Shown here in pieces: positions 3,973 to 63,214 of a stretch of DNA of 64,000 nt. The DNA is from Candidatus Nomurabacteria bacterium (GTDB taxonomy: Bacteria > Patescibacteriota > Minisyncoccia > Phycocordibacterales > UBA918), in NCBI GenBank assembly GCA_023898585.1, contig CP060229.1, positions 462,763-526,762 on the forward strand, given 5' to 3'. A model generated the notes under the pieces. That model was not told the DNA's origin and ran no database searches. It saw nothing but the letters and a program-made list of their open reading frames with translations. The first letter of the stretch is position 1. Each line of letters opens with the position of its first letter. Both the position numbers and the translations under genes were made by a program.

Positions 3973-4263
3973 ATGGAGCAGTTAACAGAAATACAGGAAC
4001 GAAACAAACGAGTCGAGCTGGATAAAGCCTGGGAGACGAGTATAGCTAGGCGGGGTATTATCGCTAGTCTTACGTATTTAGTGGCAGTCATATTCATGTA
4101 TCGGATCGGTGTGTCAGATGCCTATCTCAATGCTCTAGTGCCAACCGGTGGCTATTTGCTCTCAACTCTCTCGCTCCGAGTGGTTAAAAGACGGTGGATC
4201 AAAAATCGGATTGTCAAGGACCCTGTCGACAGAGTAAAGCGCGACCAAAGACCTTTCGATTAA
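3973..4263 (+). CDS. small hypothetical membrane protein
   Basis: ORF with a central hydrophobic helix; its C-terminal residues are encoded by the palindrome. Confidence 0.3.
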   Translation: MEQLTEIQERNKRVELDKAWETSIARRGIIASLTYLVAVIFMYRIGVSDAYLNALVPTGGYLLSTLSLRVVKRRWIKNRIVKDPVDRVKRDQRPFD

Positions 4264-4287
4264 TCGAAAGGTCTTTGGTCGCGCTTG
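4236..4287. repeat. perfect 52-bp palindrome AAGCGCGACCAAAGACCTTTCGAT|TAATCGAAAGGTCTTTGGTCGCGCTT between convergent genes; acts as a bidirectional terminator or operator
   Basis: Read directly from the sequence; core CCTTTCGATTAATCGAAAGG recurs at 4707-4726. Confidence 0.8.
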
Positions 4288-12912: not shown

Positions 12913-14130
12913 TTACTTCAAAGCCTCTTCCCGCATTCCTTTTCTGATGTTTTTCAACAGCTCATTTTTTAGCTTCTTGTCAGCCTGTAGTGTTTTACGC
13001 GCCGCGTCGTAACCTCGACCCAGTTTTACCATGGCTGATTCGTCCCCTCCCGGCGGAGTGTATGAGTAGGAAGAACCCGCCTTGGTGACCATCTTATACT
13101 TCTCACCAAGAGCTAACAATTCACCTTCGCCACTGATTCCTTCTCCGTAAATCAAGTCGAATTCAGTGGTGCGGAATGGGGAAGCGACTTTGTTCTTAAC
13201 CACTTTGACTCTATGTCGGCCACCTACCACCTCATCACCCTTTTTGATCTGGGCGATACGGCGAATGTCCAGTCGAACGGAAGTGTAGAATTTAAGGGCT
13301 TTTCCACCCGGAGTGGTTTCCGGATTACCGAACATAACACCGATTTGCATACGAATTTGGTTGATAAATATCACCACGGTTTTGCTTTTTGACACGATAC
13401 CAGTCAGTTTACGTAACGCCTGGCTCATTAGGCGCGCTTGCTTTCCGACGTGATGTGCTCCCATTTCGCCCTCGATTTCATCTCGTGGGGTGAGGGCAGC
13501 GACTGAATCAATTACCACCACATCAAGTTTTCCCGAGCGCACCAAGGATTCAACGATCTCCAAGGCCTGTTCCCCGTTGTCCGGCTGGGAAATCAGTAGC
13601 TCATCCAGCTTCACGCCCAAATTGCCGGCATAAACCGGGTCCATTGCGTGTTCAGCGTCAATAAAGGCACAGATACCGCCTCCTTTTTGCGCTTCAGCGA
13701 TGGCATGGAGGGCCAATGTTGTCTTACCGGAAGATTCTGGTCCGTAAATCTCTATAATCCTCCCCCTTGGGTAACCGCCGATACCGAGAGCGTCGTCCAG
13801 TCCGATAGAACCGGTTGATATTGCTTCCACGTCGACTTTTCTACTTTCGTCCAGAGTCATAATGGCGTCGTCGCCAAACTTAGTTTTTATACTGCGTAAG
13901 GTCTCTATTATTTCTTTGGAAGATTCTTTGGTGCCTTTTTTCTCGGACGGGGAAGAGGCTACCTCCTTGGTGCTTTTTCGGTCATCTTTTTCAACCTCCT
14001 TGGTGCTTTTTCGGTCATCTTTTTCAACCTCAGCTTCTTTATCTTCCTTGGTGGTTTTTTTAGGTTTTGCTGGCATATTTTTTGTTTGTGAGTGCTTATT
14101 TGGTCGGAATATATTATTCCCAATATTCAA
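12913..14130 (-). CDS. recA: RecA recombinase with a Lys/Glu-rich N-terminal extension
   Basis: [24 protein letters not shown] Walker A, full RecA core; the N-terminal extension contains a tandem repeat [11 protein letters not shown] x2. Confidence 0.9.
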
Positions 14131-27723: not shown

Positions 27724-29138
27724 ATTACCATCTTTACCCGAGGTAATAGTGATAATTTAATCTAAATCTGTTAGTCTCCAATGACCAACTTACTTATCCG
27801 GAACTGGTGCTTGACTTTAATTTCTTTTTCTATAGAATAGCCATCACGTATTTATGAGTTTTGAGAAAAGAACACTTTCGTAGCAAGAAATTTCGCAGAT
27901 TGCGATTTAACTTGCCGCGAGATTGCGGTTTTTTCTTTCAAAATTCAAAGGGATGCGGGTTGTTTGACAATTCCCATGACCGAGCGTCACGCGACCAAAT
28001 GTGCGAACACTTTGTGTTCATTATTTGGTTGCATGACCGAGCGAATGGGGATTGTATGGCTTGACCATACAATCGCATATTCATTAAGGACAGGTTGATA
28101 AGACCTGTCCCAAAAAGTCCTACGGCGACATTGTTTTCTTGTGAGCGAATGCGAACTAGAAAACGAGAAGTGCCTTGTGGTAAATCGACGTCGTCGTAGG
28201 CAACCCCCGCATAAAGCTAGAATCGACGCTAGCGCGGGGGAGTAGGTAAAAAAGTGTGTCGGGTTAAGAGTTTGTCCAATCGGACAGGTCTTTTCGTCCT
28301 CGACACGCTAAACACAAAGATCGTAGATTTTCCTAAGGAAAAATCTACGATCAGTCCGGAGTATGTATCTCCGGACAACACTCAAAAAATTGTGCAGCGG
28401 TGCACAGCGTTTTTGTGAGGAGCATGTCATCAGCGAAATCTGGCGACGGACCTTACTTTCGAGCGAGCGAGTGAAATGGAAGTAGCCATCAGGCCATTTA
28501 CATTTCCGAGCGAGCGAAGAAAGCAAGGAACGTTATACAGAAACGCAGTTGATGTATAACGTTCCTTACAGGAACAAAGGGTGTATGGTGGATGCCTTGG
28601 CTTCAAGAAGCGATGAAGGACGTGATATGGCTGCGATAAGTTTCGGGGAGGTGCCAAATAACCTTTGATCCGGAAATGTCCCAATGGGGAAACCCTACTA
28701 CTTTCAGTAGTAACCCTTGTATGAGGGGGCGTACCTAGGGAAGTGAAACATCTCAGTACCTAGAGGAATAGAAAGCAATAGACGGAAATTTCTTTTTGAG
28801 CGGATGCTTTGCATCAGCTCATTGAGCATGGTGCTTTGCGCCATTACGCTCAAGAAGAAGGTTCTTGCGATTCCCGGAGTAGCGGCGAGCGAAAGGGGAA
28901 TAGCCCAAATCCTGCACCTTTTAAGGTGCAGGAGGTTGTAGGGCGGAATCTGCATTTAGTTGCAGAGAGTTACAAAACAGATATATAGGAAAACACGTTG
29001 GGAAGCGTGACCCCAGTAGGTAATAGTCCTGTATTCGAAATGTATCTGACTCTCTTGGTTCCGTTCCTGAGTAGCGCGGGACATGAATAGCCCGTGTGAA
29101 TCCACCAGTACTAACTGGTAAGGCTAAATATTCTTGAA

Positions 29139-29184
<46 letters not shown>

Positions 29185-29949
29185 GGAGAGGGGAGTGAAA
29201 TAGATCTGAAACCATACATCTACAAGGAGTCGGACCCAGCTCCAGATTCGTAATCTGAATCAACGGGCTTTATAAGATCAACCGCAGTTGTTTTATAGAG
29301 CAAAGTTGTGAAAATCGTGAATCTGGAGCTGGGGACGGCGTGCCTATTGAAGAATGAGCCGGCGAGTGTATATCTATGCTTTGTCTAAGTGGCAATCCCA
29401 CGGAGGCACAGTGAAAGCGAGCGTGAATAGCGCGAATATAGCGTAGGTATACGACCCGAAGCGGGAAGAGCTTGCCATGAGCAGGGTGAAGCGACTGTAA
29501 TAGGTCGTGGAGGCCCGAACCGGTTGGCCGTACAAAACCATCGGATGACTTGTGGTAAGGAGTGAAAAGCTAATCGATTTCCGTAATAGCTGGTTCTCTC
29601 CGAAACAGCTTTAGGGTTGGCGTCGTGTGTTTCCTACGGGGGTAGAGCACTGGAAGGTCAAAATAGGGGGAAACTTCGTTTGACCTATCAAACTCCGAAT
29701 ACCGTTAGGCCACAGCACGGCAGTTAGACTACGGGGGAGAAGCTCCGTTGGTCAAAAGGGAAACAGCCCAGATCGCCAGTTAAGGTCCCAAAATATATGC
29801 TCAGTGCAAAATGAGGAGGTGAGGATTCACAAACAGTGAGGAGGTTGGCTTAGAAGCAGCCATCCTTTAAAGATAGCGTAATAGCTCACTCATCGAGAGT
29901 CCTTGCGCCGAAAATGATCGGGGCTCAAGCATATTACCGAAACTGCGGA

Positions 29950-30332
29950 TTCGTAGGCTTCATTTAGGAAAAGTTTATGTCCAAGGGGACAGTTTGATGG
30001 TCGTCAGAGTCCGCTCGCGCAGCGGAACAGCGTACGACCACAGCTGCCCACCAAGCATGCAAAAACAGTAAAGATGTCTCCTGAGGCGAGCGCCACCTGG
30101 CGCGTTAGTGACGGGCACTGCGCAGACTGTTAACATTGCATACTTTTCGTCGGGAGTGTTCGAAAGAACCCCCTTGGACTCCCGTTCTTTTACGTCGAGA
30201 CAATTTTGGTCCCCGGTAGCTTAGTTGGCAGAGTAGCTGAATGCAAATCAGTGAACACTGGTTCGACTACAGTCCGGGGAACCAAAATTGTCTCACGTAC
30301 CATTTCAAACAAGCGTTTGAATCCTAAATGAA
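29950..30332 (+). other. intervening sequence (about 345 nt) inserted in the apical loop of 23S helix 45, closed by a 20-bp stem (UUCGUAGGCUUCAUUUAGGA / UCCUAAAUGAAGCCUACGAG)
   Basis: Flanks align to E. coli H45 (GCGGCAGCGACGC..GCGUUGUUGGGUAGGGGAGCGU); the interior has no 23S homology. Confidence 0.7.
30210..30284 (+). ncRNA. tRNA-like cloverleaf (anticodon-loop GCA, encoded ACCA 3' end) embedded inside the helix-45 insertion, carried on a 21-bp extended stem
   Basis: UCCCCGG acceptor/CCGGGGA, D-arm GCUU..AGUUGGCAGAGU, anticodon stem GCUGA/UCAGU with loop AUGCAAA, T-loop UUCGACU but G53-A61 mismatch; flanked by GAGACAAUUUUGG / CCAAAAUUGUCUC. Confidence 0.45.
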
Positions 30333-30865
30333 GCCTACGAGTGGTAGGAGAGCGTCCATCTCTGCGATGAATCCAAGGCGGGAGCCGCGGTGGAGCGAGG
30401 TGGAGTGAGAATGCCGGCACAAGTAACCGCAAGGCAGGTGAGAACCCTGCCCGCCGAAATACCAAGGTTTCCTTTGCGATGGTGATCATCGAAGGGTTAG
30501 TCGGTCCTAAGGGAATCCCGAATGGGGGACCCGATGGAGAGCAGGTTAATATTCCTGCACACTGTTATGTTCCTATGGAGGGACGGAGCGTTGTACCCAA
30601 AGCTTCTTATTGGATTGGAGCTGGAGCTATGAGCGTGTTACTTAGGTAAATCCGGGTAGCAATAGCGCGAGTAGGGTCTGAATGTGAGCCTTCGGGTGAG
30701 CAAATAAGGGGAGCACGCTTCCGAGAAAAACTTCGTTTGGGTTAAGCATAATGGTTCCGTACCGCAAACCGACACAGGTGGTAGAGTCGAGAAGACTAAG
30801 GCGAACGAGTGAGAGGTCCTCAAGGAACTCGGCAAAATAGCGGCCGTAACTTCGGGATAAGGCCC

Positions 30866-31174
30866 GCCAGCCCTAGATTTGGGGTATGATAGTTGAATGC
30901 ACGCTGTGTACGTGATTCAAAACAATGAGACTAAAGAAGTCTATATTGGTCGTACTGCCAATCTCAAAACAAGACTGGTTGAACACAATTCGCGCGGTAA
31001 GAAAAGCACCACGCGCAATAGTGGCAGCTGGAAGTATATTTATGTTGAACTTTTTCGAAGTACTGATGATGCTATTGAGCGCGAAAAGAAGCTCAAAGCG
31101 CACGGTAGTGGTAAACAAAAGTTGATGTCACGACTTCGAAAAAGCTTGTTTTGAGCCCCAAATCTAGGGCTGGC
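30866..31174 (+). other. 23S helix (E. coli about 1710-1750 region) expanded by a 271-nt loop that consists almost exactly of a GIY-YIG ORF
   Basis: Stem GCCAGCCCUAGAUUUGGGG / CCCCAAAUCUAGGGCUGGC; the ORF starts 12 nt after the stem and stops 1 nt before it. Confidence 0.65.
30897..31154 (+). CDS. small GIY-YIG nuclease-domain protein encoded inside 23S rRNA
   Basis: VYVIQNNETKEVYIGRTANLKTRLVEHN (GIY..YIG, Arg, Glu); 85 aa; paralogue at 54231-54500. Confidence 0.6.
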   Translation: MHAVYVIQNNETKEVYIGRTANLKTRLVEHNSRGKKSTTRNSGSWKYIYVELFRSTDDAIEREKKLKAHGSGKQKLMSRLRKSLF

Positions 31175-31366
31175 CGCAGCGAAAGATTTCCTGCCGACTG
31201 TTTAACAAAAACACAGCTCTCTGCTAACACGAAAGTGGATGTATAGAGGGTGACGCCTGACCTATGCCGGAAGGTTAAGTACGGATGGTGATATGAGATT
31301 CGTCTTGTATTGCTGGGCTGTATAAGCCCCGGTAAATGTCAGCGATAACTATAATCGTTCTAAGGT

Positions 31367-31599
31367 CGAGTGCGTGATTTATTCGTGCATTCGACGGATT
31401 GGGACGATTGTAGAGTTAAATAGCCTAGCCATAGTTACCTTGCGACACAGAAATGTGGCGCATAATCCAAACCAAGCCGTCAAGAGACCAGATGCTTGGC
31501 ACCGCAGCACACGGATCATTGATCTGGGGTGGTGGTGAAGATAGAGTCCAATTGTGAAATGTCCCCGCTACGTTTGTGGTGGAGGAGAAGGAAAAATTG
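31367..31599 (+). other. 233-nt ORF-less intervening sequence at the conserved CUAAGGU|AGCGAAAUUCC site (E. coli about 1917); probable minimal group I intron
   Basis: Exons rejoin to CUAAGGU+AGCGUAUUUCCUUGUCGGGUAAGUUCCGAC; the insert follows a U and ends in G. Confidence 0.55.
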
Positions 31600-32202
31600 A
31601 GCGTATTTCCTTGTCGGGTAAGTTCCGACGTGCACGAATGGCGTAACGAGTGGGAAACTGTCTCGAGGACCTGCTCGGTGAAAATACAATCCCGGTAAAG
31701 ATGCCGGGTACCTGCAGTTAGACGAAAAGACCCCAGGAGCTTTACTGTAATTTCGTATTGGGGCTGTTGAGTTAATGCGTAGCATAGGAAGGAGACTTTG
31801 AAGCGAGCTTTCGGGTATCGTGGAGTCACCAGTGAAATACTTCCCTTTATTTTGGCAGTCTCTAACCGGTGTGGCAAAACCACATCGAGACAGTGCGTGA
31901 TAGGCAGTTTTAGTGGGGCGCTACCCTCCCAAATCGTAACGGAGGGGTCTCAAGGTTGGTTAGGCGCGAATGGAAACCGTGCCGATAGTGTAATGGCATA
32001 AACCAGCTTGACTGTGAGGAGTAGATTCCGAACAGATACGAAAGTAGAGCATAGTGAACCGATGGTTGGCTTTAGACGCCGCCGGAGATTACCCGATAAA
32101 AGTTACCCTGGGGATAACAGGCTAGTTGTGCCCAAGCGTCCATAGCGACGGCACAGTTCGGCACCTCGATGTCGGCTCATCTTATCCTGGGGCTGGAGCA
32201 AA

Positions 32203-33024
32203 CCATATCTGCTCTCCTTGCTGGAAACAGCAAGGTAATCGGTTGGTGGATTTTGTCTTTGGCATAATCCACCAACCGGACTGTAACAATGCGGTACCCT
32301 CCGCGGTACAGGAAACAAGCTCAAAACGGAGAAGGCTGACTCATGCGGTCTAGGGAAGACAAATGACCTGCAGTTTCGCAGGTCCCAGGTGTGCTACACT
32401 TGGAGTATGAGAGCTAATTCCGTAGGAAAGATGTGTTCTGAAGTCGATCTGGCATATGTTGCTGGTTTGGTTGATGGAGATGGCGCTATCATGGCGTGTA
32501 TCGAACCACACCAAGAAAAGAAGTTTCGGTTCAGAGTAAGGGTTGTTTTCAAAGTCACTCAAAAACACAAGGAAGACTTAATATTTCTTGAAAAATTGTT
32601 TGAGTGTGGCTTAATAAGACAAAACGGATCAACATACGATTGGATAGTGCGCGATCAACAATCGCTCGCTACCATACTTGGTATGTTACTCCCTTACTCC
32701 CGCTCGAAACAGCAGCAAATTAAGCTTGCGTTAGATATTCTTCATACTGAAATAGTAACCAAAGAAGACCTACTGCGAGTTGCCACATTGGCGGATGCAT
32801 TGTCACGGTTTAACGTTCGGTCCAACAACCGACGAAAAAACCATGTGACAATGATCCAAGAACACATTTCCTCTAACGACTGATCGCTACTGGTTGGCAG
32901 TAGCGTGAGATATACCCGCTTTGTGGGGTATCACACGGCTTGCACCTACGGTGCGTGTGGTGACACGCGTACTACGGTGATGGAATAGTCTGATCTATGC
33001 GGGAACGCATAGTTAACAGCAAAA
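32203..33024 (+). other. about 820-nt group I-type intron in the peptidyl-transferase region (GGGGCUG.AG | .AGGUCCCAAGGG), carrying a LAGLIDADG ORF
   Basis: Exons align to E. coli GGGGCUGAAGUAGGUCCCAAGGGUAUGGCUGUUCGCC; exact boundaries are ambiguous by ±3 nt (AGCAAA repeated at both junctions). Confidence 0.65.
32389..32883 (+). CDS. LAGLIDADG homing endonuclease (single-motif), intron-encoded
   Basis: DLAYVAGLVDGDGAIMA motif; 164 aa. Confidence 0.75.
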   Translation: MCYTWSMRANSVGKMCSEVDLAYVAGLVDGDGAIMACIEPHQEKKFRFRVRVVFKVTQKHKEDLIFLEKLFECGLIRQNGSTYDWIVRDQQSLATILGMLLPYSRSKQQQIKLALDILHTEIVTKEDLLRVATLADALSRFNVRSNNRRKNHVTMIQEHISSND

Positions 33025-33150: not shown

Positions 33151-33938
33151 AGTAATTGCTACTTCAAGGAGAGATCCTTGATGACAATACGGCTTATAAC
33201 GGTGAAGTCTAAGTCAAATCTGGTTTTAGAGAATGATTGACCAAGGTCCAGTGTCAATCAAACTCGCTTGAGGACCGGAATCTTGATATGATAATACCGT
33301 GGGAAGTCGATCCGACACAGATTTAGCATACATTGCGGGTTTCCTTGATGGAGACGGAAGCATTATGTTGCAGGTAAAGTCGCGTAGCGATACAAATCGC
33401 GGAGTGCGCTTTATGGCAACTATCTGCCTCTATCAAGATACTCGTCACGAGAGTCCACTGTTGTGGATGCGTGAAATCTTTGGTATCGGGTACATATCAC
33501 ACCGTAAGGATAGTATTACCGAACTGAGAGTTAATGGTTTTGCTTCGGTAAGAAGAATACTCATTTTGCTCCAGCCTTACATTAGGTTCAAACAAGTACA
33601 AGTAACAGCATTGTTGAATGCTTGCGAAATACTTGGTGGCCGCAGGGTTGGTGATCTGAATGAAGTCCAGCTGAAAGAGTTGGTTGATCTGGTTTTTTTG
33701 ATCAGGGAAAACAACTATAAAAGCAGGCAGACGCTTACCAAAGAAACATTGCTACTGCGTTTGGGTTTGACCCCGTAACGACTTGCACTGAAATATGTGC
33801 AGACCGCATGTTGATGAATCATTTCTTTGAAAATGACTGACCATGCAGGTAACATGCCGTCGCCCTCGCCCTTTGCCTTTCAAGGTGCAGGGACGGGTGA
33901 AGATATAGTCTGTGCTCCTAGAAATAGGGGAATCCACG
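33151..33938 (+). other. about 788-nt group I-type intron inserted within the sarcin-ricin loop (…UCCGUAGUA | CGAGAGGACC…), carrying a LAGLIDADG ORF
   Basis: Joined exons give UUGAGGAGAGUUGUCCGUAGUACGAGAGGACCCGG, which aligns to E. coli CUGAGGGGGGCUGCUCCUAGUACGAGAGGACCGG; the intron ends in G. Confidence 0.6.
33299..33778 (+). CDS. LAGLIDADG homing endonuclease (single-motif), intron-encoded
   Basis: DLAYIAGFLDGDGSIML motif; 159 aa. Confidence 0.75.
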   Translation: MGSRSDTDLAYIAGFLDGDGSIMLQVKSRSDTNRGVRFMATICLYQDTRHESPLLWMREIFGIGYISHRKDSITELRVNGFASVRRILILLQPYIRFKQVQVTALLNACEILGGRRVGDLNEVQLKELVDLVFLIRENNYKSRQTLTKETLLLRLGLTP

Positions 33939-34050: not shown

Positions 34051-34430
34051 GCCTCCAAGATAAGGAATCATTAAGTCCCCAGAGAGATGATCTGGTTGAT
34101 AGGCACTAGGTAGAAGTACAGCAATGTATGGAGCCGAGGTGTACTAATAGGACGTAGTTTCCTGTAAGGAACGTTGTACATCAACTGAAACTTACATAAT
34201 TGTCGTACTGCCGCGTTGTGCATCGGTAAAATAATTCTCTCTGGACGTCTAGTCCCGTTCGAATTATTTTCCTCGCACGCCTTGCATTACAAACAATTTT
34301 GAGAATTTTCAGCCGGTTGTATAACTTTTTACAAACGTTGACACCGTTGCACAATTTTTTGAGAAGAGGTGTTTTACCTACAAAAACAAACCAACTTACC
34401 ACTTTGTCTTCAACATAAGGGAGACAAGTA

Positions 34431-40570: not shown

Positions 40571-41689
40571 ATGAGTCAGCTTAGAACATTATTCGGCGGT
40601 TTTGACGTGGTGTTGTTTTCCTGCGTTTTCGGTCTTTCCTTGATGGGGTTGGTCACTATGTATTCTCACGTGGGCGATAACGTTTTTTTTAACCGTCAGA
40701 TTATCTGGATAGCGATAGCTTCATTGGCCTTATTTTTAGCCATAATTCCCGACTATCGGTTTTTGAGAACGGGGAACGTGGCCTTCTTCTCTTTTCTTTT
40801 CATTGTTTTTTTTCTGGTCTTAGTTTTGATTATTGGTGAGGTTACGCTGGGCGCGCAAAGTCGTTTTGACTTCGGTTTTTTCTCTTTACAACCTTCCGAC
40901 CCGGCCAAGCTTGTTTTGATCATAGTGTTGTCGAAATATTTTGCCAAACGTCATGAGATGATTGGTGATTTTTCGCATATATTCATTTCGGGAATATACG
41001 CCATTACTATTTTCGGGCTGGTCTTTATTCAACCGGATTTTGGGTCCGCCATAATTTTGTTTTTTGTCTGGCTCGGAATGATTCTTGTCTCGGGAATCAA
41101 ATTTCGTCATCTTTTGACTGTGTTTCTATTGGGAGCGGTGGCACTCGGCTTGATGTGGCAGTTTGTTTTCTTTGATTACCAGAAAGAAAGAATAATGACT
41201 TTTATCGATCCTTTGTCCGATATTCAAGGGGCCGGTTACAATGCTTACCAGTCGACGGTGGCAATTGGTTCAGGTGAATTGTTCGGAAAGGGGATCGGTT
41301 ATGGGACACAGTCAAAATTGTTATTTCTGCCGGAGTACGAAACAGATTTTATCTTTGCCGCCTTTGCCGAAGAGTGGGGTGTGGTCGGGGTCGTGCTTTT
41401 GTTTGTCTTGTTTGCTGTGGTTGTGTGGCGTTTGCTTCATCATGCTGTTGGTGGTGCGACAAATTTTGAGAGATTGTTTGCTTCCGGTGTGTGTATTTTG
41501 TTCATAGCGCACTTCTTTGTACACATTGGCATGAACATCGGTTTGTTGCCGGTTACCGGGACCACCATTCCTTTTCTCAGTTACGGCGGTTCACATCTGG
41601 TAACCGAGTTTTTGGCGGTCGGTATGGTAATGGGGATGTGTCGCTACACTAAGACGAAGTATCAGGCTAGGGAAATTTTAGAAGCGTAG
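40571..41689 (+). CDS. SEDS-family peptidoglycan glycosyltransferase (FtsW/RodA)
   Basis: 10 TM helices; GSGELFGKGIGYGTQSKLLFLPEYETDFIFAAFAEEWGVVG. Confidence 0.85.
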   Translation: MSQLRTLFGGFDVVLFSCVFGLSLMGLVTMYSHVGDNVFFNRQIIWIAIASLALFLAIIPDYRFLRTGNVAFFSFLFIVFFLVLVLIIGEVTLGAQSRFDFGFFSLQPSDPAKLVLIIVLSKYFAKRHEMIGDFSHIFISGIYAITIFGLVFIQPDFGSAIILFFVWLGMILVSGIKFRHLLTVFLLGAVALGLMWQFVFFDYQKERIMTFIDPLSDIQGAGYNAYQSTVAIGSGELFGKGIGYGTQSKLLFLPEYETDFIFAAFAEEWGVVGVVLLFVLFAVVVWRLLHHAVGGATNFERLFASGVCILFIAHFFVHIGMNIGLLPVTGTTIPFLSYGGSHLVTEFLAVGMVMGMCRYTKTKYQAREILEA

Positions 41690-42822
41690 ACGGATAGCGT
41701 TTCCGAAAACATCTTTTCCAGGGAAAAATTATTTTGTATCGATGCTTGCAGATTGCATCCGAGTCGTTTACGCATGCTTTCGTCACGAATTAGCATCTCT
41801 AATGAAGTGGCGATGAGTCTCGCTGTCGGTTCCACCAAAAGGCCAGTTTCGCCGGTTTCAATTATGTCTTTATTGCCGGGTAGTTGGCCGGCGACCGTTG
41901 GTAGTGTTGCGAGACCGGCTTCAAGTAACACATAAGGAAGACCCTCCTTTTTTGAAGGTAAGATAAAAATATCAAAGGCTTTTAAGTAGACTGAAGCGTT
42001 GTCAATGAAGCCGAGCAGGTGAACACGGTCTTGCAATTTTTGCATAGTTATAAGATTTTGTAGTTTAGTTCTTTCTTCACCTTCTCCGATAATAAGCAAA
42101 TGTACGTGGTCGGGAAGCGCCTTTACAGCATCAATGGCGACTGACCAATTCTTGTTCGGATGAAGCTCGCCGATACCGCCAATCCAGAGTGATTTCTGGG
42201 GGGTGTGTGGCGCGAGCTTCGCTCGCGCCACCTTTTTTTCAAGGAAAGCAATCGGCGCAATACCGTTTTTTATCAATGAAACGCGATTTTTAAGGCCGGG
42301 CATTTTTCTCGCTCGGTCAAAGGTCTCGGTCGAAATCATTATGTTGTGGTGAGACAAGAGCATTGTTAACCAGGTACTGATGTAGATAAGAAATCTCTGC
42401 CACTTCGGTCGCCACACTTCGTCTACAGTGAGACCATGTGAGGTAAAAATTATTCCAGGCACAAAAGCCAGCCGGCCAGCCAACGCTCCGATTCCTCCGG
42501 CTTTTGAGCTGGTGACGTGAAGGATATTAGGTTTTTCTTGACGGATGACTCTCCAGATCTCAAAAAACGACTTAATATCGTTTAACAGCGACACATTTCT
42601 CATGAAGTTTTTAATCGGATGGACGGTGATTTCAGCTTCTGACAATTTTTCTCCCAAGAGGCCTGTGGGGGCACCAGGCTTGCCCGTGCCCCCACAAGCA
42701 ACCGACACAACATAACCCCTTTCTTTCGCCATCTTTGCCAGCTCCAAGACGTACTTTTGCGCTCCGCCGTAGTTGCTTTTAGTGACAATGTACAGGATTC
42801 TGAGGGGAATTTTTTCGGACAT
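41662..42822 (-). CDS. glycosyltransferase family 4 (GT-B)
   Basis: C-terminal EGLPYVLLEAGLATLPTVAGQLPGNKDII...GLLVEP motif; start at MSEKIPLRILYIV. Confidence 0.8.
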   Translation of the reverse strand: MSEKIPLRILYIVTKSNYGGAQKYVLELAKMAKERGYVVSVACGGTGKPGAPTGLLGEKLSEAEITVHPIKNFMRNVSLLNDIKSFFEIWRVIRQEKPNILHVTSSKAGGIGALAGRLAFVPGIIFTSHGLTVDEVWRPKWQRFLIYISTWLTMLLSHHNIMISTETFDRARKMPGLKNRVSLIKNGIAPIAFLEKKVARAKLAPHTPQKSLWIGGIGELHPNKNWSVAIDAVKALPDHVHLLIIGEGEERTKLQNLITMQKLQDRVHLLGFIDNASVYLKAFDIFILPSKKEGLPYVLLEAGLATLPTVAGQLPGNKDIIETGETGLLVEPTARLIATSLEMLIRDESMRKRLGCNLQASIQNNFSLEKMFSETLSVYASKISLA

Positions 42823-42880
42823 AACTCTATTTTGTAGTCTAAGCATACTTCTCAGGCATTAATTCGTCCAGTTTATAAAT

Positions 42881-43077
42881 CTAGAGCATGTCCAAAAACC
42901 CTCCGAGCTCCAAAGGTTTGCAAAATTTGAGACAAAAAATTGATAGAATTTCGAGCCATACTGATGTACGGTAAGAAATTATAGCGGTTTTTTGACCAAA
43001 TTTTGCAAACCGACGAGCCGGAACAAAATATTAGAGAAGAATTTACTCTTTTGTGTAGGGTTTTGGACATGCTCTAG
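42881..43077 (-). mobile_element. MITE-like element, long form (197 bp) with about 22-bp terminal inverted repeats CTAGAGCATGTCCAAAAACCCT … AGGGTTTTGGACATGCTCTAG
   Basis: Its reverse complement aligns end-to-end with the short copies at 45527 and 63075 and has about 105 extra internal bp. Confidence 0.7.
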
Positions 43078-43201
43078 CCTCAAAGCACAAAACGACCTTC
43101 TTTACCTGCATTCGTACATAATCATCAAAAACAAAATAACAACCTTTTTAAATCCATTTACTCAATTGCAGATATTAGGTAGGATAGGGGATTGTAAGAT
43201 T

Positions 43202-44554
43202 ATGGGTGAAAGAACTAGAGAACTATTTGTCCTGATAGCGGGTGATATTTTGGTGTTTAATATAGCTTTATGGGTCACTCTTTTCGTGCGTTATCTTGAA
43301 GTGCCAAGTTTTCAACTACTGGCGTCGCATTTTCCACCGTTTCTCACTTTTTCGGGAGTTTGGCTGGTAGTTTTCTTTATCCTTGGTTTGTACGATAAAC
43401 ATACAAATCTACTGAAGAAACTGTTAGTAAACAGAATTATCTACGCCCAAGCTATCAACGTGGTGGTGGCTGGAATTTTGTTTTTTGTTGTTCCGTTTGG
43501 TATTACCCCGAAAACAAATTTGGTTTTATACTTAATTATCTCCACCATCCTGCTCAGTTTGTGGCGAATTAAAATAATACCCAGTCTGTCTCCCAAACAA
43601 AGGCACAAAGCAGTTTTAATTGCCGACGGTCATAACGCCGTCGAGCTGGCTGACGAAATCAACAACAACGATCGGTATAACTACTATTTCATCAGAATTA
43701 TCGATGAGGAAACTCTATCTAACACCAAAGATTTTGAATCTAAAATTCTTTCACTGATGGAAAAAGAAAAAATTGAATTGATTGTGGCTGATTCACAAGG
43801 AGACTCGATCAAGGCGTTTCTGCCAGTCTTGTTTGATCTTTCTTTCTTAAAGTTTGAATTCACTTTCCTCGATTTTAATCGTCTTTACGAAGACACCTTC
43901 GATCGAGTGCCTATCAGTATGTTGGAGTACGATTGGTTTATTAATAACATCTCACAATCAAAAAGCGCCATTTATGACGCTATCAAGAGATTGATAGACA
44001 TCGTGGGCTCTTTGGCTTTACTATTGCCTGCGGTTGCCATTTTTCCTTTGGTCGCGATTGCGATAAAGTTGGAAGATAAAGGTGGGATTTTCTACACCAC
44101 CACTCGAGTAGGACAGTTTAACAAACCGATCACGATTTATAAATTACGGACTAAAAACGGTGTGGACTCAGGATCCTCGGCGTTGAACAGTACTCTCGTC
44201 GATACCAAGGTCGGTACTTTTTTGCGTAAAACCAGGATTGATGAGTTGCCCCAGTTAATAAACGTCTTGAGAGGAGACCTTTCTTTTATCGGACCGAGAC
44301 CGGAGATGCCGGCCCTCGCTTCCGTCTACGCGGAAAAAATTCCGTACTACAACACGAGGCATTTCATAAAACCGGGTCTATCTGGTTGGGCACAGATAAA
44401 TAATTTTGACGTCCCTCGGGGAGGAGTTGATGTCGAACGAACAATCACCAAATTGTCTTACGATCTGTTCTATTTAGAAAGAAGATCACTTCTCCTTGAT
44501 GTGCAGATTACATTTAAGACCTTAGCGACAATCATAATGAGAACCGGAACTTAA
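43202..44554 (+). CDS. polyprenyl-phosphate glycosyl-1-phosphate transferase (bacterial sugar transferase, WbaP/CpsE-like)
   Basis: Four to five N-terminal TM helices; C-terminal DELPQLINVLRGDLSFIGPRPEMP motif. Start moved to MGERTRELF because the longer ORF starts inside the MITE. Confidence 0.8.
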   Translation: MGERTRELFVLIAGDILVFNIALWVTLFVRYLEVPSFQLLASHFPPFLTFSGVWLVVFFILGLYDKHTNLLKKLLVNRIIYAQAINVVVAGILFFVVPFGITPKTNLVLYLIISTILLSLWRIKIIPSLSPKQRHKAVLIADGHNAVELADEINNNDRYNYYFIRIIDEETLSNTKDFESKILSLMEKEKIELIVADSQGDSIKAFLPVLFDLSFLKFEFTFLDFNRLYEDTFDRVPISMLEYDWFINNISQSKSAIYDAIKRLIDIVGSLALLLPAVAIFPLVAIAIKLEDKGGIFYTTTRVGQFNKPITIYKLRTKNGVDSGSSALNSTLVDTKVGTFLRKTRIDELPQLINVLRGDLSFIGPRPEMPALASVYAEKIPYYNTRHFIKPGLSGWAQINNFDVPRGGVDVERTITKLSYDLFYLERRSLLLDVQITFKTLATIIMRTGT

Positions 44555-44583
44555 TCGTGTTTGGATTGGTTTAGTATAGATGT

Positions 44584-45525
44584 ATGGATACTAAAAAATC
44601 TTTCTTGGTTACCGGAGGAGCTGGTTTTATCGGTTCTCACGTGGTCGATGCTCTAATTGCTTCCGGAGCCAAAGTCACTGTTGTCGATGTAAAAGCTGAA
44701 GCGGAAGCGAAAAATATCGCCCACCAAACAGGGAAAATTATCTATGTGCAAGGCAATATCTGCAATGAGAGTTTAGTGGATGATTTGTGTCAAGGTAAAG
44801 ATTACATAATTCACTTAGCAGCCGTGGTTTCTGTCCCACTTTCGATTGAGAAGCCGGTATTTTCTCATAATACAAATGTAAACGGCACATTAAACGTGTT
44901 TAATTCGGCGGAGAAGAATGGGGTTAAGAAGGTGGTTTACGCTTCATCGGCTGCTGTTTATGGCAATTCCGATAAACTGCCGGTCGCGGAAGATTTTCCT
45001 CTAAGTCCTCTTTCTCCCTACGCCATTCATAAAGTAAACAATGAAATGTACGGCAAGTACTACAGCGAGCGAGGGCGATTGGAAACAGTCGGACTGCGTT
45101 ACTTCAATGTTTTTGGTTTACGTCAAGACCCGGGCTCACCATATTCGGGCGTGGTCTCTTTATTGCTAGATCATTACATTAAAGGCAGTAAACCGACTAT
45201 TTTTGGTACCGGTGAGCAGACAAGAGATTTTGTTTCGGTAAAAGACGTGGCGTTAGCCAACTTGCTTGCGGTTGAAAATGGTAAATCTGGCTCGGTTTAT
45301 AATATTGCTTCAGGGAAGGAGACTTCCATCAATGACCTCGTTGGTGTCATAGAAAAGATTTCAAACTCACCGTTTTTGACACTGAAAGCTCCCGCTCGAG
45401 ACGGAGACATAAAAAGGAGTTGCGCGACAATAGATAGGGCGAAAAGGGAACTCAATTTCGAACCCCTATTTTCACTAGCAACGGAACTGGAGAATTTGTT
45501 GGTAGGCAATAAGCCAGTAGCGTAA
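44584..45525 (+). CDS. NAD-dependent sugar epimerase/dehydratase (SDR, GalE/WbpP-like)
   Basis: VTGGAGFIGSHVVD Rossmann motif, YASSAAVYG, catalytic Y..K in SPYAIHK. Confidence 0.85.
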   Translation: MDTKKSFLVTGGAGFIGSHVVDALIASGAKVTVVDVKAEAEAKNIAHQTGKIIYVQGNICNESLVDDLCQGKDYIIHLAAVVSVPLSIEKPVFSHNTNVNGTLNVFNSAEKNGVKKVVYASSAAVYGNSDKLPVAEDFPLSPLSPYAIHKVNNEMYGKYYSERGRLETVGLRYFNVFGLRQDPGSPYSGVVSLLLDHYIKGSKPTIFGTGEQTRDFVSVKDVALANLLAVENGKSGSVYNIASGKETSINDLVGVIEKISNSPFLTLKAPARDGDIKRSCATIDRAKRELNFEPLFSLATELENLLVGNKPVA

Positions 45526-45526
45526 C

Positions 45527-45620
45527 TCTAGAGCATGTTTCCAAACCCTACACAAAAGAATAAATAGTTGTCTCAAATTCTGCAAACCTTTGGAGCTCGG
45601 AAGGTTTTCGGACATGCTTT
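45527..45620 (+). mobile_element. MITE-like element, short form (about 94 bp)
   Basis: CTAGAGCATGTTTCCAAACCCTACACAAAAGA…TTGCAAACCTTTGGAGCTCGGAAGGTTTTCGGACATGCT. Confidence 0.65.
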
Positions 45621-45665
45621 AATTCCGATTCGACAAAGCAGATTATTTGTTATACTGTCGTCACT

Positions 45666-47957: not shown

Positions 47958-48941
47958 ATGTTTGCAATTATCAATAGAAAAATACTGTTAGCCATCGCTG
48001 GAGTAATAATGATCGGTAGTTCTTTGCTGATTGGCTTCTTGGGACTGAATCTGGGTATTGATTTTACCGGCGGTTCACTGACCGAGGTATCGTATAAAGA
48101 AGCGCCAACAAAAGAGAGATTGGAAAAGGTGGTGGCCGAGGCAGTGTCTGATTTGGGAGGTTTTTCAGTGCGAGCATCGGAAGTTGATTCCGGTGACACC
48201 ACCTATCTCATTCGCACTCGTGACCTTTCCGAAGAGGAGCGTCATCTGTTGCACGAGGCGGTTATTGCGGAAGGTTTTGGTACTATCGAACGCTTTACTT
48301 CGATCGGTCCGGTGATTGGGGAAGAACTGAAAGACAAGGCCGGTTGGGCAATATTCGGGGTAGTGATGATTATTGTTTTTTATGTAGCTTTTGCCTTTTC
48401 CGGAATTGGAGTGCCTGTCAGTTCTTGGGTTTACGGTGGGATTACAATTTTCGTGCTTGTGCATGATGTGTTGGTGCCTACTGCCTTGATGAGCCTACTT
48501 GGACATTTTGCTGGTATGGAAGTGGATGTGCTTTTTGTCACGGCTTTACTTGCCGTACTTGGATATTCTGTCAATGACACAATTGTCGTCTTTGACCGAG
48601 TCCGTGAAAACTTAGTAAAGAACCGTACCGAGCACCGTAAAAAACACAAAGAACCAGGTGGCGTAGAGCATGAAATCGTGACTTACAAACTAACGGCTCC
48701 TTACGATGAAATCGTGGGTTCCGCCGTTTCCGAAACTCTTTCACGATCTATCAATACTTCTTTCACAACACTGATCGCTTTGACCGCACTTTATTTTTTC
48801 GGTGGAGCCGTGACTCAAACTTTCGCCCTGGTACTTATCGCCGGAGTTTTGGCAGGTACTTATTCCTCAATTTGTATCGCGAGTCCGCTGGTCGTAGCTT
48901 ACTCAAAGTACAAAGAATCTAAGAAAAAAGAGATAAATTAA
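47958..48941 (+). CDS. secF: protein-export membrane protein SecF
   Basis: GIDFTGGSLTEV motif, follows secD with 1-nt spacing. Confidence 0.85.
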   Translation: MFAIINRKILLAIAGVIMIGSSLLIGFLGLNLGIDFTGGSLTEVSYKEAPTKERLEKVVAEAVSDLGGFSVRASEVDSGDTTYLIRTRDLSEEERHLLHEAVIAEGFGTIERFTSIGPVIGEELKDKAGWAIFGVVMIIVFYVAFAFSGIGVPVSSWVYGGITIFVLVHDVLVPTALMSLLGHFAGMEVDVLFVTALLAVLGYSVNDTIVVFDRVRENLVKNRTEHRKKHKEPGGVEHEIVTYKLTAPYDEIVGSAVSETLSRSINTSFTTLIALTALYFFGGAVTQTFALVLIAGVLAGTYSSICIASPLVVAYSKYKESKKKEIN

Positions 48942-54500: not shown

Positions 54501-54511
54501 ATGGGGGTTTA

Positions 54512-54569
54512 CCCCGCACTCAGTTTTTCCTATGGAGTATCAACTCCATAGGAAAAACTGAGTGCGGGG
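54512..54569. terminator. exceptionally long perfect hairpin (27-bp stem: CCCCGCACUCAGUUUUUCCUAUGGAGU-AUCA-ACUCCAUAGGAAAAACUGAGUGCGGGG)
   Basis: Read directly from the sequence; lies between the GIY-YIG gene and the SD-bearing island. Confidence 0.7.
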
Positions 54570-54752
54570 TTGACAATTCTCCAAAGTATGCTAGCTTATC
54601 AGTGTCTTCACGACGCGCGACAGATGTGGTGTAATCTTTTTTAAAGAAATTGCCACTTCTGCCTCGCGTACGCGAGGCAGAACCTGCTGACACAGCGTCA
54701 GCAGAACCTGTCGGCGTCGCCGACTTACGCTTTATCCTAGGAGGGATAAGTG

Positions 54753-62224: not shown

Positions 62225-62270
62225 AACAAACAAAGAAAACCATCGGCATGCCGATGGTTTTCTTTGTTTG
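62225..62270. terminator. bidirectional hairpin AAACAAAGAAAACCAUCGGCAUGCCGAUGGUUUUCUUUGUUU
   Basis: Perfect 19-bp stem between the 16S 3' flank and the reverse-strand gene. Confidence 0.75.
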
Positions 62271-62292
62271 TACGCTCGACTGAATCACTTTT

Positions 62293-62966: not shown

Positions 62967-63040
62967 TTTGATTTGTCCGTGCTTAGCTCAGTTGGCTAGA
63001 GCATTCGACTGATACTCGAAAGGCCCTAGGTTCGAATCCT
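62967..63040 (+). tRNA. tRNA-Ile (anticodon GAU), flanked by an about 30-bp extended processing stem
   Basis: Acceptor CCGUGCU/AGCACGG, U8, D-arm GCUC-AGUUGGCUA-GAGC, anticodon loop CUGAUAC, T-arm CUAGG-UUCGAAU-CCUAG; flanks GAUAUUUUGUUUGUUUGAUUUGUCCGUGC / GCACGGACAAAUCACGCAAACAGCAAAAUAUC. Confidence 0.85.
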
Positions 63041-63074
63041 AGAGCACGGACAAATCACGCAAACAGCAAAATAT

Positions 63075-63167
63075 CTAGAGCATGTCCGAAAACCCTACAC
63101 AAAAGAATAAAAGTTGTCTGATATTTTGCAAACCTTTGGAACTCGGAGGGTTTTTGGACATGCTCCA
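63075..63167 (+). mobile_element. MITE-like element, short form (about 93 bp), immediately after tRNA-Ile
   Basis: CTAGAGCATGTCCGAAAACCCTACACAAAAGA…TTGCAAACCTTTGGAACTCGGAGGGTTTTTGGACATGCTCCAG. Confidence 0.65.
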
Positions 63168-63214
63168 GATAAGTCTTGCAAGGAGACGATAACCTACGCT
63201 AAGACCAACAATCT

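Follow-up and report, generated by a model that had tools for sequence, protein, structure and literature searches.

Three MITE copies of very probable IS5-family origin

Herein we describe three short repeats, named A, B and C, in a stretch of 64,000 nucleotides (nt) from Candidatus Nomurabacteria bacterium (contig CP060229.1, positions 462,763 to 526,762 of the forward strand), which in its whole length is called the window and whose own numbering is used throughout. Our analysis argues strongly that the three repeats belong to the miniature inverted-repeat transposable elements (MITEs) and descend from an insertion sequence (IS) of the IS5 family, about 0.9 kb in size, with a single DDE transposase of ~270 amino acids (aa), a DUF4096 domain at the N-terminus of this transposase, and GAG termini. 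A MITE family had already been proposed in the original prediction, which was made from the letters of the window, and that proposal is now strengthened by autonomous IS5-family elements which carry the same terminal inverted repeat (TIR) elsewhere.

The long form, copy A, lies on the reverse strand and spans 42881-43077 when its flanks are included (197 bp with C-TA and TA-G), its core being 42884..43074 (191 bp), with TIRs at 42884-42901 and 43058-43074 and TA flanks at 42882-42883 and 43075-43076. The two short forms stand on the forward strand, opposite in orientation to A. Copy B occupies 45527-45621 with its flanks (core 45531..45619, 89 bp; TIRs 45531-45548 with 3 mismatches and 45602-45619 with 2 mismatches; TA flanks 45529-45530 and 45620-45621), and copy C occupies 63075-63168 (core 63078..63165, 88 bp; TIRs 63078-63095 and 63148-63165), with TA (63076-63077) as its left flank and CA (63166-63167) as its right one. 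B and C are collinear at ~88-89% identity, and the reverse complement of A matches them over 57 nt at one end (93%) and over 40 nt at the other (83%), with ~104 additional internal columns in A; the divergence among the three copies amounts to 7-12%. All three copies lie where they had first been placed, and the earlier description of the long copy as a short copy plus about 105 internal bp agrees with this alignment. Compared with chance, the TIR core GGTTTTNGGACATGCT has 4 exact matches in the window and 9 matches at up to 3 mismatches where 2.2 are expected, and an internal 22-mer of the elements occurs 3 times where 0.01 is expected, while a search by nhmmer with a profile built from the three copies detected no fourth copy in the 64 kb. 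Taken together, the alignments, these counts and the profile search show that the repeat family is real and far above chance. The elements, with a GC content of 0.38-0.41, are slightly AT-richer than the window (0.44).

The conserved TIR is an 18-nt core, GAGCATGTCC(N)AAAACCC, which every copy carries at each of its two ends with 0-3 mismatches and which is reduced to 17 nt at one end of A. As for the TIR of about 22 bp described originally, the inverted termini are real, but the core comprises 18 nt and the outer 'CTA' belongs to the flanking target (C plus TA). A and B have TA immediately outside the TIR at either end, and C has TA on the left and CA on the right; the context is often C-TA...TA-G. 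Copy A also contains a second, inverted 15-nt copy of the subterminal GGTTTGCAAAATTTG; that aside, its remaining internal ~105 bp have no other copy in all the sequence compared. As to coding capacity, no open reading frame (ORF) inside or overlapping the elements gave a significant Pfam match, and with cores of only 191, 89 and 88 bp the earlier statement that the elements encode no transposase holds.

Autonomous IS5-family elements with the same TIR

The TIR was scanned as an exact pattern over one genome per species, and in a second scan over metagenomes. An element of 906 bp on one contig (L030, 122-1027) has the same TIR at its ends and encodes an ORF of 267 aa, which matches the NCBIfam model NF033580, 'IS5 family transposase', with 226.9 bits (cutoff 110) as well as the Pfam models PF13340 (DUF4096) with 106.9 bits and PF01609 (DDE_Tnp_1) with 82.3 bits (cutoff 23). 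In all, four full ISs of 906-918 bp end in this TIR, the other three being on L072 (3909-4821), L078 (3924-4836) and L081 (3355-4272). Homologues of the transposase at 65-80% identity are very numerous and mostly located on contigs of ~1 kb, which is typical of multi-copy ISs, and the three homologues that were looked up (P0183, P0180 and P0197) turned out to be ISs of 913-918 bp with the same TIR and with TA flanks. P0183 among them is named 'IS5 family transposase [Candidatus Kaiserbacteria bacterium]'; like the window strain, it derives from the WANG18-1 and ERZ273093xx metagenome series. Even distant plasmid-borne relatives, at ~50% aa identity, have similar termini, as in Synechocystis (GAGCGTGTTTGAAAAGT) and in Paracoccus (TTA-GAGCCCGCCCCGAAA).

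The likeness between MITE and IS extends to the identity of each end. The left 27 nt of copy C are 92.6% identical to the left, transposase-upstream end of the IS on L081, and its right 21-22 nt are 95% identical to the right ends of the ISs on L072 and L078. The MITE thus has distinguishable 'left' and 'right' ends of the IS, as would be the case if it had arisen from an IS by internal deletion or had been assembled on IS ends. In comparison with IS5-family ISs (NF033580 'transpos_IS5_3', DUF4096 plus DDE_Tnp_1), the TIR, the GAG termini and the TA flanks are in common; however, those ISs have a single transposase of ~270 aa, whereas the elements in the window measure 88-191 bp, have no transposase gene, and share with the ISs the TIR and a few subterminal bases. 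The IS427 and IS1031 groups of ISfinder are ISs of ~0.8-1 kb with GAG or GA/G termini and target duplications of 2-4 bp; by their size, single ORF, GAG termini and short TA flank the full ISs would fit these groups. As a separate observation, the four full ISs share the motif TATCATA(A/C)GG(A/G)TATACCAG, which precedes the start of the transposase and lies 40-60 nt inward of the left end. It might serve as a promoter or as an additional binding site; the MITEs are without this motif.

Besides the full ISs, the TIR is carried by ~25 other small elements (72-495 bp) in public genomes and metagenomes, several of which belong to metagenome-assembled genomes (MAGs) named as lineages of the candidate phyla radiation (CPR). 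For example, an element of 163 bp is found in a Ca. Sungbacteria MAG (L014) and one of 162 bp in a Ca. Paceibacteria MAG (L020), while the contig set of the MAG PMV_2_maxbin.003 contains an element of 91 bp (L013), another whose second TIR is degenerate (L018), and one of 495 bp with internal tandem repeats (L022, 834-1328). The second TIR is inverted in each of these, and their interiors are unrelated to the elements of the window. Within L022 there are ~3 tandem copies of an internal unit of ~117 bp, and its subterminal sequence is common to L013 and L018; from these elements it can be seen that length variants arising by internal expansion or deletion recur in this TIR superfamily. The metagenome scan revealed ~20 further elements of 72-207 bp, which fall into several subfamilies, some of them present at several different sites. 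In a TIR profile over 58 ends there is hardly any variation at positions 1-18, and from position 19 on the conservation drops sharply. Not all hits are elements of this kind: ~8 single-TIR hits in metagenomes and most single hits in genomes were set aside as chance or coding matches, for example the methyltransferase motif LEHVQNP encoded by CTAGAGCATGTCCAAAACCC. A lack of TIR conservation beyond this locus had been named in the original prediction as the result that would speak against it; the TIR is conserved elsewhere, and widely so.

Target site and proposed mode of transposition

The flanks of these elements point to a defined target. Among the 38 ends whose flank the search pattern left free, 29 have TA, the frequency of TA in the background being 0.049 (P ~1e-30). 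One position further out the flank is again constrained, being C or T at position -3 and G or A at position +3, each in 26 of 29 elements compared, which gives a YTAR context. Other models of the target-site duplication were tried, namely 3-bp TNA, 4-bp CTAG and direct repeats outside the TA, and they fit 0-1 of the 29 elements; nor do direct repeats longer than 2 bp fit the flanks. The simplest reading of the flanks would be insertion at YTAR with a 2-bp duplication of TA, in keeping with the short duplications of the IS427 and IS1031 groups.

A TA target is also a property of another group of transposons. The IS630/Tc1-mariner superfamily duplicates TA and can target CTAG, so the TA flanks and the C-TA-G context of our elements would fit a MITE of that superfamily; likewise, in size and hairpin shape they are similar to REPINs, which a RAYT (Y1) transposase mobilises. 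However, all the autonomous elements found with this TIR encode a transposase of the IS5 family with DDE_Tnp_1, and the ends of these ISs match the MITE ends past the TIR, which makes an origin from IS630 or RAYT most improbable.

For the derivation from an IS5-family IS, a few points have to be put on the other side of the balance. No homologue of the cognate IS5 transposase was detected by tblastn in the 64-kb window, and no copy with the internal sequence of the window elements was found in the public genome, metagenome and viral-contig collections scanned. The homology of MITE and IS past the TIR is short (4-9 nt). In each locus retrieved, the search pattern itself dictates the sequence of one TIR, only the other end being free. 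The target-site duplication, for which the original prediction had suggested a check, is seen as TA flanks that fit a duplication of 2 bp, with no longer repeats; transposition and TA duplication are here deduced from flank statistics rather than from an empty site at the strain level, and TA could formally be the outermost bases of the element instead of a duplication.

With these points weighed, we still hold the IS5 derivation to be the best explanation, and the following scenario is proposed for it. A DDE transposase of the IS5 family, supplied in trans, would bind the 18-nt TIRs and excise the MITE by cut-and-paste, after which the excised MITE would integrate at YTAR with the TA being duplicated. 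Copy A would have arisen from the short form as a foldback variant, or else the short form would be a deletion derivative of A. Such elements resemble the known bacterial MITEs (Correia, in Neisseria) and the Tourist MITEs in that they are small, non-coding and intergenic, occur in multiple copies with TIRs and TA-containing flanks, form hairpins, and show length variants by insertion and deletion; they differ in the TIR sequence and in the host lineage. Tourist MITEs are members of PIF/Harbinger, a eukaryotic superfamily with a relationship to IS5.

Hairpin structure and the RNA alternative

The elements can also be looked at as RNA. Copy A folds as a near-perfect hairpin of ~200 nt with -84.8 kcal/mol (z = -10.9), copy C folds with -34.9 kcal/mol (z = -5.8), and for B, the most decayed copy, the z of the fold is -2.2. 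Both A and C contain, within their right end, a weak terminator-like stem followed by a T-run. Considering these hairpins, and the position of B and C immediately 3' of a gene and of a tRNA on the transcribed strand, the repeats might be thought to constitute a family of structured non-coding RNAs or regulatory hairpins, such as terminators, RNase III sites or small RNAs, instead of mobile DNA. Yet no Rfam family matches the elements, and A is situated between divergent promoters in the opposite orientation. The ~25 related elements conserve nothing except the 18-nt termini around unrelated interiors, as one expects where a transposase binds and not where an RNA folds, and the same termini bound transposase genes. 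A purely RNA family is accordingly very improbable, and the repeats are better regarded as MITEs, which could have taken on a hairpin role secondarily by exaptation.

In the case of C, which starts 24 nt past the end of the tRNA-Ile gene (63051), two parts of this tRNA, GCTAGAGCAT in the D-arm (62997-63005) and CTAGAGCA in the 3' part (63040-63047), look like the outermost 8-9 nt of element end and flank, CTAGAGCAT. This likeness is probably a coincidence, for a 9-mer match is expected ~0.5 times by chance in 64 kb.

The polysaccharide genes between copies A and B

The segment bracketed by A and B (43202..45525, forward strand) comprises two genes, a sugar transferase of the Bac_transf family at 43202-44554 and an NAD-dependent epimerase at 44584-45525. 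On the other side of A, and outside it, a glycosyltransferase family 4 (GT4) gene with Glycos_transf_1 and Glyco_transf_4 domains of Pfam runs divergently from Bac_transf at 41662..42846 on the reverse strand, so that A sits in the divergent intergenic region of GT4 (-) and Bac_transf (+). At the other end of the segment, 3 nt separate the stop codon of the epimerase (45523-45525) from the TA flank of B, and B is followed by folD, upstream of whose conserved promoter-like motif tgttatactg it is located. Copy C lies far apart from this pair, downstream of tRNA-Ile(GAT) at 62977..63051 (+), which is itself downstream of the 16S rRNA gene. The arrangement is as first described, with A and B inverted around 43202-45525 and C directly after tRNA-Ile.

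It was also suggested originally that A and B form a structure like a composite transposon, which could invert or excise the genes in between. In favour of such a unit, in which the two elements would move both genes together, cut them out or turn them round, A and B are oppositely oriented around 43202-45525 and share inverted segments of 54 nt at 93% and 40 nt at 83%. Recombination between the segments of ~55 nt is possible in principle, though no observation points to it; a transposase could likewise in principle use the two outer TIRs.

The relatives are not close, the nearest non-identical FolD proteins being only 67-68% identical; they are too distant for an alignment of the junctions, and all the same-strain assemblies carry the elements. 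Three related loci (L068, L069 and L071) keep the gene order VWA-FtsW-GT4(-)-Bac_transf-(epimerase)-FolD-SecD-SecF, and no TIR is present across the 9-13 kb of each of them. The GT4 gene is in the same place in L068 and L071, and in L069 and L071 Bac_transf and the epimerase are placed and ordered as in the window without any flanking elements, L068 lacking the epimerase only. What differs is the length of the two gaps. The one between GT4 and Bac_transf measures 91-137 bp in the relatives and 355 bp in the window, where it holds A (197 bp), and the one between the epimerase and folD measures 25-41 bp in the relatives and 140 bp in the window, where it holds B (94 bp). The synteny of the relatives and gap differences of about the length of an element at each site indicate that the sugar genes are ancestral residents and that A and B are two separate intergenic insertions. 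In all these loci a motif tgttatactgYcgWcact stands directly upstream of folD (45640-45665 in the window, 5976-6000 in L071, 2540-2563 in L069 and 5975-6000 in L068), which looks like an extended -10 promoter (TGnTATACT); in the window it is kept just downstream of B.

Other metagenome assemblies supplied six contigs that are collinear with the window across A and B at 99.99-100% identity, and none of these six independent assemblies has the A-B segment inverted, the reference orientation being the only one found. Several of these contigs start or stop inside A or B, as repeats cause. The tail of one contig (L002), which departs from the window at 48088, was discarded as it looks like an assembly chimera, and it has no bearing on the elements. 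Moreover the GC content of the A-B segment, 0.417, is unremarkable beside the 0.44 of the window, in which there is no transposase. Thus the same genes in the same place and order in element-free L069 and L071, extra intergenic lengths that point to two independent insertions into an ancestral operon, and six collinear assemblies without an inverted junction all stand against the composite or invertible unit, which we consider very improbable. With composite transposons of the Tn10 or Tn5 type the locus has in common two inverted, TIR-bearing elements around a gene pair, but the flanked genes here are ancestral and the elements are non-autonomous and diverged (83-93%), one of them with decayed TIRs. 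For the biology of this locus the practical point is a negative one: on the gene order of relatives and the orientation in assemblies, a view of Bac_transf and the epimerase as transposon cargo, or as a mobile or switchable (invertible) cassette, is not supported.

As for their present state, the copies in the window are probably old and immobile now, which is suggested by the divergence of 7-12%, the decayed TIRs of B, the TA lost by C, the want of a transposase in the window, and loci that are identical in all assemblies. Their present effect would most likely be limited to strong 3' hairpins on the transcripts of the epimerase and of tRNA-Ile and to a longer promoter region between GT4 and Bac_transf, with a displaced promoter region of GT4 as a possible side effect.

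Other features of the window

Several further features are recorded here. The 16S and 23S rRNA genes are unlinked in the window. This, the GC content of 0.44, the insertions and LAGLIDADG ORFs of the 23S gene described next, and a FolD protein that is also encoded on an NCBI contig of 994,774 bp would together agree with a genome of the CPR (Patescibacteria) type. The full Rfam model of 23S rRNA (2925 nt) aligns to 28565-32289 (3725 nt), so that insertions of ~800 nt are contained in it; an inverted repeat of 29 nt at 97% pairs 28546-28574 with 34159-34187, and two ORFs of the LAGLIDADG type (32389-32883 and 33299-33778) lie between its arms. The 3' part of the 23S rRNA gene is probably interrupted by one or more introns carrying homing endonucleases. 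Also within this gene a tRNA-Cys(GCA) is called at 30210-30284 (ARAGORN; 50.5 bits with Rfam), whose acceptor stem is extended by an inverted repeat of 29 nt (30197-30225 and 30266-30294); it may be a real tRNA gene embedded there, an insertion that resembles a tRNA, or a case of tRNA mimicry by an expansion segment. Elsewhere there is a perfect tandem duplication of 33 bp at 13961-14026, and three perfect palindromes with 25-28 nt per arm are found at 4237-4286, 54511-54570 and 62226-62271, the last of which lies just past the 16S gene and resembles a bidirectional terminator.

Implications for mobile DNA in CPR genomes

The genomes of CPR bacteria (Patescibacteria) are of very small size, and mobile DNA is usually said to be scarce in them; our full-text literature searches found no paper describing MITEs in this group. 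The elements of the window stand in the standard relationship of a MITE to its parent IS, in a host group for which no published description was found. Since the TIR is common to the MITEs and to active-looking IS5 elements in several such lineages, cut-and-paste elements together with their non-autonomous derivatives persist in CPR lineages. Such elements break metagenome assemblies, and the 18-nt TIR provides a simple probe for cataloguing them.

The breadth of the distribution deserves attention as well, for a near-invariant TIR is found on many unrelated foldback interiors, including those in Sungbacteria and Paceibacteria MAGs, and on an IS named after Kaiserbacteria. One might go further and suppose that a single IS5 lineage with this near-invariant 18-nt TIR has spread over many CPR lineages of the Parcubacteria type and has repeatedly spawned unrelated foldback MITEs, some of which were kept as hairpins at transcript ends, where they act as terminators or processing sites. 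We put this forward as a speculation that is rather unlikely to hold in full. If both the wide spread of the IS5 lineage and the retention of hairpins were true, they would amount to a previously undescribed mobile-element system that shapes minimal genomes of ~1 Mb.

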